Shown: positions 3,768 through 46,742, counted from the first letter of the stretch. The stretch: 64,000 nt of DNA from Alphaproteobacteria bacterium (GCA_965205265.1 CBDBGH010000001.1:96001-160000); one strand, 5' to 3'. The notes: generated from the sequence alone by a model not told the origin. Numbers and translations: made by a program.

Positions 3768-5161
3768 GGGTCAATTAAGGCTCAGTGCCAAATCCTGCGT
3801 CAAGCCCTCTGGGTCCCTTGCAATGTGCGATAGACGGTTGCCCTCATTACCCATATAGGTCGTTGCCAATGGCACCGGTGTCGAAACGGTCCCCAAGGAC
3901 GAAGTCGAAGTCGAAATCCTCCGCAGTGATCTGCGACGCCCGTATCCCGACCAAGGTGACGGATCCGCTGTCCCAGGTGATCACGGTGTTCTCGCCCGAC
4001 TGACTGATCGTGAGATCCTCAAGCTTCGTCCTGAGCGCCTCCCCAACAATGGACGCCGGGACTGACTTGAACGCCAGAATGTCCGTCCCGTCCTCGAAAT
4101 CCTCGATCGTCGCATGGCCGCCGTAATCTCTCCAGGATTTTCTCGCGAGCAGGAAAATATCGTTGCCGTCGCCACCATGGAGCGTATCGTGGGCTGGGCC
4201 AACAGCGAGAATTTCGTTGCCCTCTTCGTCATAGTGCGTAAAATAGTCTGGGCCAACAGCGAGAATGTCGTTGCCCTCACCGCCATAGAGCGTGTCGTCG
4301 CCAAATCCGCCGATGAGCAGGTCGTTACCTGCACCTCCGTAAAGGGTGTCGTTGCCCCAGCTGCCCCAGAGCCCGTCCATGCCGTCGCCGCCTCTGAGCG
4401 TGTCGTTGCCGTCGCCGCCGTCGAGGTGATCATTGCCGTTGCCACCCTCCAACGTGTCGTCGCCGTCGCCACTATGGAGTTCGTCGTTGCCGTCGCCGCC
4501 GTACAGCCTGTCGTCGCCCTTGCCGCCATTCAGGTCGTCGTCGCCGCCACCGCCGTAGAGGGTGTCGTCGCCGTATTCGCCGGCCAGCCAGTCGTTGCGC
4601 TTGCCGCCGTACATCTTGTCGTTGCCGTCGCTGCCAAGGATGACGGCGTCGAAGTTGCTCCAGCCGCCGCCGATGCCTCCGTCAGTGTCGTAGTCGACAT
4701 GCCGGGTGAAGCCCCTGGGCAGCGCGAAGTCGCCCCCATCGAGGGTGTCCGCCGACACACCTGTCAGCCTGATGGTGTCGCCATCGCCGTAGCGAACAAG
4801 GGCATCGGCGCCATCCTGCTCGATGACCAGCCCCGCGAACCCGCCCGCCTCGCCATCGATGCGGATCGTGTCGCCGTCCTCGAAGTCGGCAATGGTGTCG
4901 TGGCCGTCCCCTGCCTTGAACACGAAGGTGTCGTCGCCCAGGCCGCCCCTCAGCCAGTCGTCACCCTCCCCGCCGTTAAGAGTGTCGTTGCCCTTGCCGC
5001 CCCTGAGCGTGTCGGCGCCCCTGCCGCCGTTAAGAATATCGTCACCTTTGCGGCCTATCAGGGTGTCGTCGCCGTCTCCGCCGTCGAGGGTATCGGCGCC
5101 ATTTTCGCCCTTCCGCGTCACTCCGGCGGTCTTCCGCTGGGCCGGGTCGGACCCTTCACCT

Positions 5162-5480
5162 CGTATGTTCAAAGAATCAGAAATGAAAGGAGGTGGTGGC
5201 TGTGGAAAAATCTGGCGCGATTTCCTGTGGAAAACATGCCGGTTGCCTTCCGCCGTTCCTCCGGTTCATTCCTGTGTCGGGGCCGACGCCGCCGGGTCCC
5301 ACCCGGCGGCGTCGGTGCGGGGCTGGCCCCGCAGGACGGGTTGGACCGATATCACCTTGGATCGCGACAGCGGATCCGTGGGGAAGCGTGGTCGGCCCGC
5401 CCTCCCGTCCGTCTCCCGGGTCCTGGATGGATGCCTGGGTTTCGGGAACCGGATCATCGCGAGGATAGGAGCGGGAGAGC
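5162..5480 (+). ncRNA. Predicted IS110 bridge RNA region in the 5' non-coding end, copy 1; transcript limits unknown
   Basis: Target-like guide ATATCACCT (5349-5357) and GGGAAG (5381-5386); donor-like guides ATGGATGC (5427-5434) and CGAG (5460-5463) match the circle junction ATGGATG-CT-CG. Confidence 0.75.
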
Positions 5481-6428
5481 ATGACAACCATAGTCGCAGG
5501 AATCGACGTAAGCAAGCGTACACTGAACGTCCACGTCAACGGGCGTGACCTCACGGCCACCAACGACACGGACGGCTTCCGAAAGGTCGGCCGCGTCCTC
5601 AGGGAGGCCGGCGCCGTGAAGGCCGTCATGGAGGCCACGGGGCGCATGCACCGGGCGCTGCCGCAGTCGCTGCATGCCAGGGGGTTCTCCGCCGTCGTCG
5701 TGAACCCGCGGCAGGCGAGGGACTTCGCGAAGGCCGCCGGGGCCCTTGCGAAGACCGACAGGGTGGACGCCAGGATACTGGCGGCCTTCGGGGCCGCGTT
5801 CCCGGACATGGAGGCCACGGAGCCGGCCTCCGCCGCCATCGACCGGCTCCGCGACATGCTGGTGCTGCGGGACAGGCTCGTGGACCAGCGCACCGAGCTG
5901 AGGACCGTCGTGTCGGAGATCGGCGGGGGGACGCCCGGCGCGGAGGTCGGCAGGGTCCCCGGGGACATCGACGCCGCCATCGCGGCTCTGGAGCGGCGGA
6001 TCGGCGTGACGGTCGCCGGATCGCCGGAGTTCGCCGAAAGCCACCGCATCCTCACCTCGGTGCCGGGCATCGGCCCCGTCACCGCGGCGGCCCTGGTCGC
6101 ATGGATGGCGGAGCTGGGCACCATCGGCAACCGGCAGGCCGCCTCCCTGCTGGGCGTGGCCCCCTTCGCCCGCGACAGCGGCACCCTGAAAGGCGGGAGG
6201 CACATCGGCGGCGGGAGGAGGCGGCCGAGGGACGTCGTCTACATGGCGGCGCTGTCGGCCAGCAGGTGCGCCCCGGACATGAGGGAACTGTACCAACGGC
6301 TCCGGGAGAGGGGAAAGCCCCACAGGGTCGCCCCCGTCGCCGTCATGGGCGGGCTGGTCGTGACCGCCAACGCCCTTCTCCGCGACCGCCGGATGTGGGA
6401 GGACCGGACGGCGGCAACCGCCGCCTGA
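5481..6428 (+). CDS. IS110 DEDD transposase/recombinase
   Basis: GIDVSK, MEATG, KTDRVD, SVPGIG, RDSG motifs. Confidence 0.95.
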
Positions 6429-44423: not shown

Positions 44424-45212
44424 ATGAAGTATATCAGGCCCGTCCTTGTGTCGACGTTGGCTGTGGCCAACGTGGTGACTGGGAGCCCGGCACTATCCTG
44501 GACGAGGCATCTTTGCCCCGACCAGCCAACAGGAGACGAGACACTCCATGCAATAGGGTTCCAGTCACCTGCGAAATTCGAGGAAGTCACTTATTTCGGA
44601 GAGTACGGAGCCGTCCTGAGGGCACTGGTGAACTTCTGGGCGACCCCCAGTGAGGATGTTGTCTATGCGTACCCTCTAGCCGTCTTCGATGATTTGGTCC
44701 AGTATCCGACAGCTCAAGGCCCAAACTACACAATGGAGGGGAGTGAGGGCGGCTCGAAGCCAGTCGTCTCCTATGGTGACTATATGGCCTGGCTCGAGGA
44801 TCCAGGAAAAACCGCCATCGTCAGCGGGGTTCCCGGGGAGCACTATGTTGGGACGCCAGTGGAGTGGTCCCCGATGGTCATCGGTTCTTTCAAGGCAGTC
44901 GGTCCCTTGTCGGAGGCCGCTTCCCAGGTGGCGGATTTTTCAGACATTGCGCTGAAAGTGAGCCTCGCCAGCGGCGTCTACAATTATGGATCTCCGTCAT
45001 CCAGCATTGTTGAAGCGGTGAGGATCGAAAACCTCGACCTTGGCAACGATATCAACTGCATTGCTGCAATGATTGAGGACGAAGAGGTTTACGCGAATCT
45101 GAGAGAATCGATGAGTGCCGACAGCTACCTGGCCGCCACCGAGCCCATCCCGGGACTGGAACCAATGAACCGGTTGATCGTCTCGCGAGATTTCTGGCCT
45201 GAAGAAGGCTGA
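44424..45212 (+). CDS. Hypothetical exported protein, lower GC
   Basis: Signal-peptide-like MKYIRPVLVSTLAVANVV; acidic globular composition. Confidence 0.55.
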   Translation: MKYIRPVLVSTLAVANVVTGSPALSWTRHLCPDQPTGDETLHAIGFQSPAKFEEVTYFGEYGAVLRALVNFWATPSEDVVYAYPLAVFDDLVQYPTAQGPNYTMEGSEGGSKPVVSYGDYMAWLEDPGKTAIVSGVPGEHYVGTPVEWSPMVIGSFKAVGPLSEAASQVADFSDIALKVSLASGVYNYGSPSSSIVEAVRIENLDLGNDINCIAAMIEDEEVYANLRESMSADSYLAATEPIPGLEPMNRLIVSRDFWPEEG

Positions 45213-45273
45213 AAGTGGACTTCCCTGCCCGCCCGCGAAGCGTCCGTCCCGAAATCACCGGACGCTACGGGAA

Positions 45274-46742
45274 AGCATCCATGTTGGAAATCAAGCCCGG
45301 ATCCGGCTTTTTTTCCGTTTTTTCCGGGTTCCGGATCCGGCTGTCCCGGACCTTTCCACAGCGTTCCCCACAGGCGGCGCCGTCCGGGCACGCCGGAAGC
45401 GCCCGCCGGGGAGACCCCGGCCGGCCCGAAGGTGATTCGTTTCCGTGCCGGACCGCGGCGGTCCGTCCGTGCGTCAGGCGGCGGTGGCCGCCGTCCGGTC
45501 CTCCCAGACGCGCCGGTCGCGGAGAAGGGCGTTGGCGGTCACGACCAGCCTGCGCATGACTGCCACGAGGGCGACCCTGTGTGGCCTGCCCCTCTCCCGG
45601 AGCCGTTGGTACAGCTCCCCCATGTCCGGGGAGCACCTGCTAGCCGACATCGCCGCCATGTAGACGACGTCCCTCGGCCGCCTCCTTCCGCCGCCGATGT
45701 GGCGCCCGCCCCTGATGGTGCCGCTGTCGCGGGCGAAGGGGGCCACGCCCAGCAGGGAGGCGGCCTGCCGGTTGCCGATGGCGCCCAGCTCCGCCATCCA
45801 CGCGATCAGGGCCGCGGCGGTGACGGGGCCGATGCCCGGCACCGAGGTCAGGATGCGGTGGCTTTCGGCGAACTCCGGCGATCCGGCGACCGTCACGCCG
45901 ATCCGCCGCTCCAGGGCCGCGATGGCGGCGTCGATGTCCTCGAGGACCCTGCCGACCTCCGCGCCGGGCGTCCCCCCGTCGATCTCCGACAGGACGGTCC
46001 TCAGCTCGGCCCGCTGGTCCACAAGTTTCTCCCGCAGCACCAGCATGTCGCGGAGCAGGTCGATGGCGGCGCTGGCCGGCTCCGTGGCCTGCATGTCCGG
46101 GAACGCGGCCCCGAAGGCCGCCAGTATCCTGGCGTCCACCCTGTCCGTCCTCCCCAGCGCCCCGGCGGCCTTCGCGAAGTCCCGGGCCTGGCGGGGGTTC
46201 ACCACGAGGGTGGCGAAACCCCTGGCGTGCAGCGACTGCAGCAGCGCCCGGTGCATGCGCCCCGTCGCCTCCATGACGGCCTTCACGGCGCCAGCCTCCC
46301 TGAGGAGGCGGGCGACCCTGCGCAGGCCGTCGCTGTCGTTGGTGGCCGTGAAGTCCCGCCCGTTGACGTGGATGTTGAGTGTACGCTTGCTTACGTCGAT
46401 TCCGGCGATTACTGTGGTCATGCTCTCCCGCTCCTATCCTCGCGATGATCCGGTTCTGAAAACCCAGGCATCCATCCAGGACCCGGGAGACGGACGGGAG
46501 GACGGGCCGACCACGCTTCCCCACGGATCCGCTGTCGCGATCCAAGGCGGTATCGGTCCAACCCGTCCTGCGGGGCCAGCCCCGCACCGACGCCGCCGGG
46601 TGGGACCCGGCGGCGTCGGCCCCGACACAGGAATGAACCGGAGGGACGGCGGAAGGCAACCGGCATGTTTTCCACAGGAAAGCGCGCCAGATTTTTCCAC
46701 AGCCACCTCCTCCTTTCATTTCTGATTCTCTGAACATACGAG
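45274..46742 (-). mobile_element. IS110-family element, copy 3, 1469 bp
   Basis: AG cores at 45274-45275 and 46741-46742; guide segments ATACCGCCT (complement of 46545-46553) and GGGGAAG. Confidence 0.92.
45474..46421 (-). CDS. IS110 DEDD transposase/recombinase
   Basis: 315 aa paralog of the other two copies. Confidence 0.95.
   Translation of the reverse strand: MTTVIAGIDVSKRTLNIHVNGRDFTATNDSDGLRRVARLLREAGAVKAVMEATGRMHRALLQSLHARGFATLVVNPRQARDFAKAAGALGRTDRVDARILAAFGAAFPDMQATEPASAAIDLLRDMLVLREKLVDQRAELRTVLSEIDGGTPGAEVGRVLEDIDAAIAALERRIGVTVAGSPEFAESHRILTSVPGIGPVTAAALIAWMAELGAIGNRQAASLLGVAPFARDSGTIRGGRHIGGGRRRPRDVVYMAAMSASRCSPDMGELYQRLRERGRPHRVALVAVMRRLVVTANALLRDRRVWEDRTAATAA

Follow-up and report, generated by a model that had tools for sequence, protein, structure and literature searches.

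Three co-resident IS110-group elements with predicted IS621-type bridge RNAs and differing target guides on a 193-kb alphaproteobacterial replicon

The DNA considered here is a stretch of 64,000 nucleotides (nt), the window, which represents bases 96001 to 160000 of a 193-kb replicon (65.7% G+C) of an Alphaproteobacteria bacterium (GCA_965205265.1, CBDBGH010000001.1), with the remainder of that 5.70-Mb assembly consisting of a 5.46-Mb chromosome and a 43-kb replicon. Found within the window, as by blastn using 5160-6700 as query, are three copies of an IS110-family element, located at 5160-6628 (plus strand), 17451-18919 (plus strand), and 45274-46742 (minus strand). These are described as copies 1, 2, and 3, or W1, W2, and W3, while L-numbers designate loci and P-numbers designate recombinase proteins from outside of the window. 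Copies 2 and 3 are 93.1% and 92.9% identical to copy 1, respectively (blastn), each copy is exactly 1469 nt long, i.e., 1467 bp plus a second CT core, and all three can be aligned with one another without gaps. Each starts with CT-CGTATG and ends with ATGGATG-CT. The dinucleotide CT, that is, flanks both sides of the element, with no duplication extending beyond that core and with no terminal inverted repeats.

An earlier, sequence-only reading of this DNA had described three 1469-bp copies bounded by CT, which blastn and the gapless alignment bear out, and the end, guide-segment, and flank letters quoted by that reading are all exact in the end alignments of the three copies. The same reading held that two short segments of the 5' non-coding end serve as target guides which track the insertion site of each copy, and that a single lineage is diversifying these guides inside one genome. 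As means of checking, it pointed to collection of all copies genome-wide, folding of the non-coding end, and covariation between guides and flanks across more copies. A search of the whole assembly supplies the first of these: full copies are limited to the window's three, all found on the 193-kb replicon, and beyond these there are matches only to two fragments of the start of the left end, about 39-43 nt in length, which are on that replicon as well.

Copy 1 (boundaries from blastn and end alignments) may be used to describe how these elements are laid out. Its left non-coding end (5160-5480, plus strand) is 321 nt long and is predicted to be a bridge-RNA gene, the conserved, structured part of which corresponds to element positions 106-321 (5265-5480). 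There then follows a gene encoding a recombinase of 315 amino acids (aa) which possesses DEDD_Tnp_IS110 and Transposase_20 domains (5481-6428, plus strand), followed in turn by a right non-coding end of 200 nt (6429-6628, plus strand), with a -35-like TTGATT at 6608-6613 and with ATGGATG-CT as its terminus. The recombinase coding sequence (CDS) is found at 17772-18719 in copy 2 and at 45474-46421 in copy 3. Deletion of copy 1 from the sequence (1467 bp, including one CT) restores a minus-strand open frame of 651 aa across the site, with RTX calcium-binding repeats present on both halves of that frame, and copy 1 therefore interrupts a gene, and does so precisely at the boundaries given. The downstream part of this RTX-repeat gene is found at 3847-5159 and its upstream part at 6629-7269, both on the minus strand. 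For eight open frames adjoining copies 2 and 3, a Pfam search returned no match.

In each of the three copies the recombinase frame is intact and displays both PF01548 (E 1e-19 to 4e-22) and PF02371 (E about 1e-17). A full-length alignment can be made between this protein and the transposase of IS621, 8WT6 (phmmer, E 2.6e-19), with D9, E51, D93, D96, and S233-G234 aligning with IS621 residues D11, E60, D102, D105, and S241-G242, respectively, where the chain numbering of 8WT6 in the Protein Data Bank (PDB) is offset by 2. These catalytic residues, along with G234, are invariant in three out of three copies, and with IS621 it is reported that mutating any of D11, E60, D102, D105, or S241 abolishes recombination (PMC11208158). 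Protein identity among the three copies is 88-89%, and the ratio of nonsynonymous to synonymous divergence (dN/dS) is 0.35-0.41. Given intact frames, retained catalytic residues, and dN/dS in this range, all three recombinases look to be functional. The features which define membership in the IS110 family are all seen, that is, an N-terminal RuvC-like DEDD domain along with a C-terminal Tnp domain, the catalytic D/E/D/D plus serine, and duplication of CT only. The chromosome separately carries two distant IS110-family recombinase genes (C3:894360-895283 and C3:4157822-4158745), both 38% identical to that of copy 1.

The left end, all 321 nt, folds better than 100 out of 100 shuffled versions (z -3.6). 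Left ends are also well conserved: they are 80-85% identical, as nucleotides, to those of relatives, from Paracoccaceae metagenome-assembled genomes, whose recombinases are 65-71% identical as proteins and whose right ends are about 70% identical as nucleotides. The consensus structure of 28 different left ends consists of two 5' hairpins, then a stem-loop with a large internal loop, then a second stem-loop which also possesses an internal loop, along with a closing helix. Compensatory changes are seen at 18 of its 56 consensus pairs, versus 4.9 +/- 1.7 with shuffling (none of 500 shuffles reaching 18) and versus 5-9 pairs given slid controls, i.e., with partners shifted by 1-3 columns. A helix which would pair the two donor guides together never covaries. 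The hairpin which is found between the two target-guide segments (helix 6; 5359-5377 in copy 1, plus strand) has two pairs showing compensatory change, and a compensatory pair at element positions 127 and 153 sets copy 2 apart from copies 1 and 3. Strong variability is limited, in an RNA which elsewhere is conserved, to the first internal loop, where it affects both sides, with the second loop nearly invariant. A variable first loop in combination with a conserved second loop is the pattern described for IS621 relatives (PMC11208160).

The 5' side of the first internal loop of copy 1 is its left target guide, ATATCACCT (ATATCAC+CT; 5349-5357, plus strand), and the 3' side is its right target guide, GGGGA+AG (5380-5386, plus strand), with copy 1 inserted at CCTTCAC-CT-TCCTC. 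For copy 2, the left guide is ATACGGCCT (ATACGGC+CT; 17640-17648), the right guide is GGGAG+AG (17671-17677), and the site is GAACGGT-CT-CTCCC. For copy 3, on the minus strand, these are ATACCGCCT (ATACCGC+CT; 46545-46553), GGGGA+AG (46516-46522), and AGGACAC-CT-TTCCC. Left guides differ by two transitions between copies 1 and 3 and by one change between copies 2 and 3. That two short, differing segments flank a hairpin, as had been claimed, is correct, and differences indeed are concentrated there: the 12 guide letters hold 5 of the 16 variable positions of element positions 106-321 (hypergeometric P = 0.0007). The second internal loop, by comparison, holds the left donor guide ATGGATGC (5427-5434 in copy 1, plus strand), which is identical to the right-end terminus, and the right donor guide CATCGCGAG (5455-5463, plus strand), which is the reverse complement, in discontiguous form, of CT-CGTATG, with which the left end starts. 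Neither varies among the three copies, and both are nearly invariant in the 28 left ends, and the earlier description of invariant segments which match the donor junction thus stands. After the AG with which the right target guide pairs to the core there comes CG in the window copies and CA in several relatives. These letters are complementary, with G:T allowed, to the TG which precedes the core in the donor (donor positions 6-7), and in this they would seem to resemble the handshake guides of PMC11208158.

To what degree do these guides match the sites at which they are found? Scored as left matches out of 7 and right matches out of 5, the copy 1 guide gives 4 and 4 at its own site, 1 and 3 at site 2, and 4 and 4 at site 3. 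The copy 2 guide gives 1 and 2 at site 1, 4 and 5 at its own site, and 2 and 4 at site 3, while the copy 3 guide gives 2 and 4 at site 1, 3 and 3 at site 2, and 3 and 4 at its own site. By this three-by-three comparison copy 2 stands apart from the other two, whereas copies 3 and 1 are not told apart. If rG:dT wobble is allowed, then the right guide which copies 1 and 3 share fits both of their right flanks at 5 out of 5 positions. Copy 2 therefore is clearly matched to its own site, copy 1 is well matched, and copy 3 is matched on the right half only. The earlier claim that guides track their own sites holds, that is, for copies 1 and 2 but not for the left guide of copy 3.

The three window copies alone are too few to prove such tracking, and relatives were scored for that reason. 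A scan of a genome collection yielded 39 loci, of which 24 could be scored in that simple patterns located the start of the left end, the first loop, and the terminus of the right end. Together with the window's three copies this gives 27 elements, with 19 distinct guide-plus-site combinations and 13 guide classes. The left loop side matches the 7 bases to the left of the core at 4.26 positions for an element's own site versus 2.70 for the sites of others, and the reverse complement of the 3' loop side matches the 5 bases to the right of the core at 3.95 positions for own sites versus 2.24 for those of others. With one representative per guide class and with sites shuffled among classes, the observed score of 104 compares with 62.6 +/- 6.2, and not one of 20,000 permutations reaches it, which is the case as well for each side alone. 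The positions which guide are -5 to -1 and +1 to +5, whereas -7 and -6 do not, and there is a strand rule: the sense of the 5' loop side is that of the top strand, whereas the 3' side is reverse-complementary, including to the core. The same strand rule has been published for IS621 (PMC11208160).

It could be supposed that the variable segments are unconstrained loop letters and that their likeness to flanks is coincidental. The window holds only three copies, the left match of copy 3 is weak, and sites are GC-rich and partly alike, as can be seen from the cross matches of 2.70 of 7 and 2.24 of 5, all of which would be in keeping with coincidence. The permutation outcome, however, whether for left, right, or both sides, as well as the position-specific nature of the fit and a strand rule which is that of IS621, together make coincidence extremely improbable. 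Also arguing against coincidence are two elements, L025 and L032, from a single Paracoccaceae metagenome-assembled genome. These are 92.7% identical over the whole element, with guides that are entirely different on both sides, and yet each fits its own site, at 5 of 5 positions on the right and 5 of 7 on the left. Co-residence of approximately 93%-identical variants possessing different target loops thus is a feature of the clade rather than a peculiarity of the window. A pattern scan of metagenomes contributed 8 more loci, of which 6 were scorable on the left. These represent three events, with left matches of 6, 7, and 4 out of 7, and for the first of the three (6 of 7) the right flank, read by eye, is reverse-complementary to the guide at 5 of 5 positions. 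The covariation across more copies to which the sequence-only reading had looked is thus present, over 13 guide classes.

A further feature is seen if the right end is joined to the left end, as would occur within an excised circle. This joining places a -35-like hexamer, TTGATT in copies 1 and 3 and TTGAAT in copy 2, exactly 17 nt before a -10-like hexamer, TATGTT, of the left end (5164-5169 in copy 1, plus strand), such that the two are brought together only in the circle junction. A simple scan found no sigma-70-like site in the integrated copy. The 17-nt spacing is seen in 12 of 12 distinct family junctions, among which the -35-like hexamer starts with TTG in ten and CTG in two, and the left-end hexamer is TATG.. 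in eleven and CATGTT in one, where these are matches to consensus only. Reconstitution of a promoter upon excision is reported for published IS110-type elements (PMC11208160). Just inside of the right end, at 6593-6609 on the minus strand, there is also a terminator-like hairpin followed by a T run, which overlaps the -35-like region of the other strand.

Covarying structure, guide-flank covariation, the donor-loop match, and the junction promoter all support the left non-coding end as having the target-loop and donor-loop layout of an IS621-type bridge RNA, as the sequence-only reading had proposed, and every defining feature of an IS110-group element with such an RNA that can be looked for in DNA was found. 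By analogy with IS621, the element may thus be envisaged as follows. A 321-nt left end would encode the bridge RNA, to be followed by the gene for the 315-aa DEDD/serine recombinase and the 200-nt right end. Excision would join right end to left end, creating a sigma-70-type promoter (TTGATT, 17 nt, TATGTT) which would drive both bridge RNA and recombinase expression. The second internal loop (ATGGATGC ... CATCGCGAG) would then hold the element's own junction while the first would hold the target, with its 5' side reading as the five bases to the left of the CT core and with its 3' side reverse-complementary to CT together with the five bases which follow. With donor loop and ends held in common but target loops differing, the three copies would specify different sites of approximately 12 nt.

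The likeness to IS621, as described by Durrant et al. (2024, PMC11208160) and Hiraizumi et al. (2024, PMC11208158), begins with the recombinase, which has two domains and in which the five catalytic residues all align. In both cases the RNA is encoded by the left end, the longer of the two, and consists of a 5' stem-loop region and then two stem-loops, each with an internal loop, the first of these loops being variable and matching the target and the second being conserved and matching the donor. The core in both is CT, and circle formation rebuilds a promoter at the junction. The likeness extends as well to a discontiguous right donor guide of nine RNA letters, which in IS621 pair discontiguously with seven donor bases (Durrant et al., PMC11208160). 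There are differences, however. The relationship at the protein level is a distant one, a left end of 321 nt compares with an IS621 RNA of about 177 nt (PMC11208160), and there are two 5' stem-loops plus a closing helix. In addition, the left guide consists of approximately 5+2 letters rather than 7+2, the right of 5+2, with G:T pairs tolerated, and in several relatives the left guide lacks a match to the second core base. Unlike IS621, these elements are known from sequence alone. ISCro4 (PDB 9T56) belongs to the same family, and its protein aligns over the full length (E 8.4e-18), but it is distant in sequence and the comparison was by protein only. The IS1111 group shares with the window elements the recombinase family and RNA-guided site choice, but there it is a long right end which carries the RNA, with subterminal inverted repeats of 7-17 bp (PMC11208160). 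Here the left end instead is the longer (321 versus 200 nt) and possesses the guide loops, and the inverted repeat beside the donor site is only 4 bp (ACAT...ATGT). The features which define the IS1111 group, that is, are not those of the window elements.

How did three such variants come to reside together? The most straightforward version, which the sequence-only reading had favored, is that one element was duplicated in this genome, with guides then diverging by point mutation. Consistent with duplication in place is that copies are confined to one 193-kb replicon, that the differences among left guides are so few, and that the element is absent, by DNA search and left-end pattern, from the 36 further genomes searched within the family and order to which the host belongs. 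The copies, however, differ at 144 sites, with a synonymous divergence (dS) of 0.12-0.17 and a protein identity of 88-89%, and so are far more divergent than copies made in place usually are. Private differences moreover are clustered, with 67 adjacent same-label pairs versus 45.1 +/- 5.4 (1 of 20,000 shuffles reaching this), and copy 2 is the odd one at 12 of 22 variable left-end sites versus 22 of 102 CDS sites (Fisher P 0.003). The copies thus are mosaics, with copy 3 having a copy-1-like left end and a gene which is closer to that of copy 2. A signature of A-to-G/T-to-C hypermutation, to which odd replacements in database proteins had pointed, is absent from the window copies, with transitions numbering 27, 32, and 20 versus 42, 48, and 38 transversions.

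Also counting against duplication in place is that the protein of each copy is closer to one from another assembly than to those of its neighbors. A tree of 32 recombinases, built by maximum likelihood and with bootstrap not fully settled, pairs W1 with P0011 (97/93), W2 with P0006 (100/98), and W3 with P0004 (99/95). Many distinct variants of this clade are present, moreover, in each of two other assemblies. Each guide variant, furthermore, is single-copy in the genome, despite there being unoccupied perfect 12-nt predicted targets on the chromosome, three for the copy 2 guide and two for that of copy 3 (none for copy 1). Diversification of guides within this one genome therefore is distinctly unlikely. 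As for where the elements came from, DNA search found no other holder among 61 related genomes, and a plasmid collection gave 15 records, all of them 60-80% identical over at most 20% of the element. Given its absence from those 36 relatives, the replicon probably acquired these elements from outside. Among close relatives from the two large assemblies (P0009-P0022), clustered odd replacements are seen, e.g., in the first catalytic motif, and these may represent either a real swarm of decaying copies or instead assembly or polishing error in repeats. No such pattern is seen in the window copies.

What we consider to be well supported, by contrast with duplication in place, is that the window holds three intact IS110-group elements with IS621-type bridge RNA which are old mosaic sub-lineages rather than products of recent in-genome diversification. 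These would be sub-lineages of a wider swarm which came to be together on one 193-kb replicon presumably by happenstance.

A number of observations weigh against so viewing the trio, and these may be considered collectively. Fifteen of the 39 loci went unscored (L040, L041, L043-L047, L051, L053-L056, and L058-L060), being truncated, interrupted, or without a recognizable end, and among scored relatives there are misses, i.e., L023 and L052 with 1 of 5 on the right, L037 with 1 of 7 on the left, and L038 and L039 with 3 of 7 on the left. Kinship among scored elements inflates any permutation test, and does so despite the use of one representative per class. An Rfam scan of 5100-6700 gave 12 matches at E up to 10, none of which is IS110-related, with the best of these at E 0.25 and at 22 bits versus a threshold of 50. 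None of the sequencing runs listed for the stretch is on record as RNA. Four runs in contig form, mapped over 4000-7800, displayed no clean empty-site or circle joint. What they supplied were thousands of very short pieces, with at most 62 different contigs at any one place, and with summed depth inside of the element from several-fold to about tenfold above that of most flank bins. The guide variants are single-copy notwithstanding free perfect targets, which offers no sign of current activity in this host. The outside proteins which pair with each copy could be, in addition, orthologous copies in a closely related strain, in which case the tree would be less telling. Lastly, there is copy 3, the left guide of which matches its own flank at 3 of 7 positions, and at just 2 of the 5 which guide, where the guide of copy 1 matches 4 of 7.

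That misfit of copy 3 likely has one of three reasons: its guide was altered following insertion, it was delivered by the RNA of a sibling, or it was inserted upon a half-match, as a preprint reports for IS621 (10.64898/2026.08.31.748434). Delivery by a sibling's RNA is possible because the three copies do not differ in their donor loops or in the guided parts of either end. More generally, given such identity, any of the three bridge RNAs could carry any of the circles, and an element thus need not hold the guide that placed it. Copy 3 may accordingly have been placed by a copy-1-type RNA or via a half-match event, as its site is fitted by the copy 1 guide at 4 of 7 plus 4 of 5 and by its own at 3 of 7 plus 4 of 5. 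A parallel is seen with L039, from an Amylibacter metagenome-assembled genome, which has a one-letter guide change with a site sequence that is the same as that of its siblings, and which fits the siblings' guide better (4 versus 3 of 7). The difference with copy 3, however, is of a single position, and mutation of the guide after insertion accounts equally well for both copy 3 and L039, such that guide sharing is offered here tentatively, as something which we would somewhat doubt. The left guide of copy 3 is, in addition, that of an element class found in a Paracoccaceae metagenome-assembled genome, the sites of which read CCGC-CT, where that of copy 3 reads ACAC-CT. A swap of flanks through inversion between opposed copies was tried as an explanation and rejected, as the swapped pairings are no better (2 of 7 for the copy 3 guide with the copy 1 left flank and 4 of 7 for the copy 1 guide with the copy 3 flank).

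Taking guide sharing one step further, these elements might be viewed as a consortium, that is, as having a common donor module along with several target loops, with copies both sharing guides in trans and exchanging target-loop modules via recombination or gene conversion. We regard that as rather unlikely. If true, then any RNA would deliver any copy, widening the range of reachable sites, retargeting would occur by module exchange as well as by point mutation, and copy 3, with its copy-1-like left end, copy-2-like gene, and misfit left site, would be a product of both processes.

The retargeting of natural IS110 relatives by way of the first loop was already published in 2024, and the window is an instance of that principle. 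In Extended Data Fig. 5 of Durrant et al. (2024, PMC11208160), natural IS110 orthologues are binned by guide and display different first-loop letters with corresponding sites, mostly at zero to two mismatches. The variants here differ from those orthologues in that a single replicon carries all of them, they have one donor module in common, and they are mutually mosaic. Co-resident, mosaic IS110 variants with a common donor module are not described in those titles and abstracts that were found, though supplements may hold cases. Beyond the literature found, therefore, go only the mosaic pattern and the possible cross-use of guides. Nevertheless, with recombinases that are 88-89% identical, identical donor recognition, and three target loops, the trio provides a natural matched test set. 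It is suited especially to asking what minimum of guide letters decides target choice as well as whether RNAs act across copies. With an effective guide that is short (approximately 5+2+5 letters, with G:T wobbles), specificity and off-target behavior also become open to study.

Several additional observations concern related elements as well as the surroundings of these copies. In a Paracoccaceae metagenome-assembled genome, a related left end is split at GGTGG-CT-GTGGA, at about element position 41-42 (L040:528-2229, L053:528-2229, and L045:1-589). The insert is 1702 bp, is bounded by CT, and encodes, on the opposite strand, a 397-aa IS110-family recombinase (PF02371, PF01548), and thus is a second RNA-guided element, nested in the bridge-RNA end of a first. 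The two solo left-end pieces of the host's 193-kb replicon (L017 and L018; C1:6824-6862, plus strand, and C1:62991-63033, minus strand), which are 39 and about 43 nt in length and 91-95% identical, stop near the position of that nested element. One adjoins a transposase remnant, the other is inside of a locally repeated region, and their flanks are among other repeats.

Near to copy 1 are direct repeats which are 93-98% identical, with one at 76% (3109-3628, 7888-8407, and 16668-16967, and also 4718-5017 versus 6767-7066), and these appear to be paralogous segments of RTX-repeat genes. Another direct-repeat pair, 25842-26141 and 43288-43587, is at least 300 nt long, 99% identical, and 17.4 kb apart. 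Two sequencing runs with small shares of the stretch are labelled as sponge metagenomes, which is no evidence of habitat. A type I restriction-modification system is represented at 30000-33160 of the window by genes for its M and S subunits, which have 79% DNA identity to a Salipiger abyssi plasmid. Part of the replicon resembles a plasmid of a marine Rhodobacterales species.

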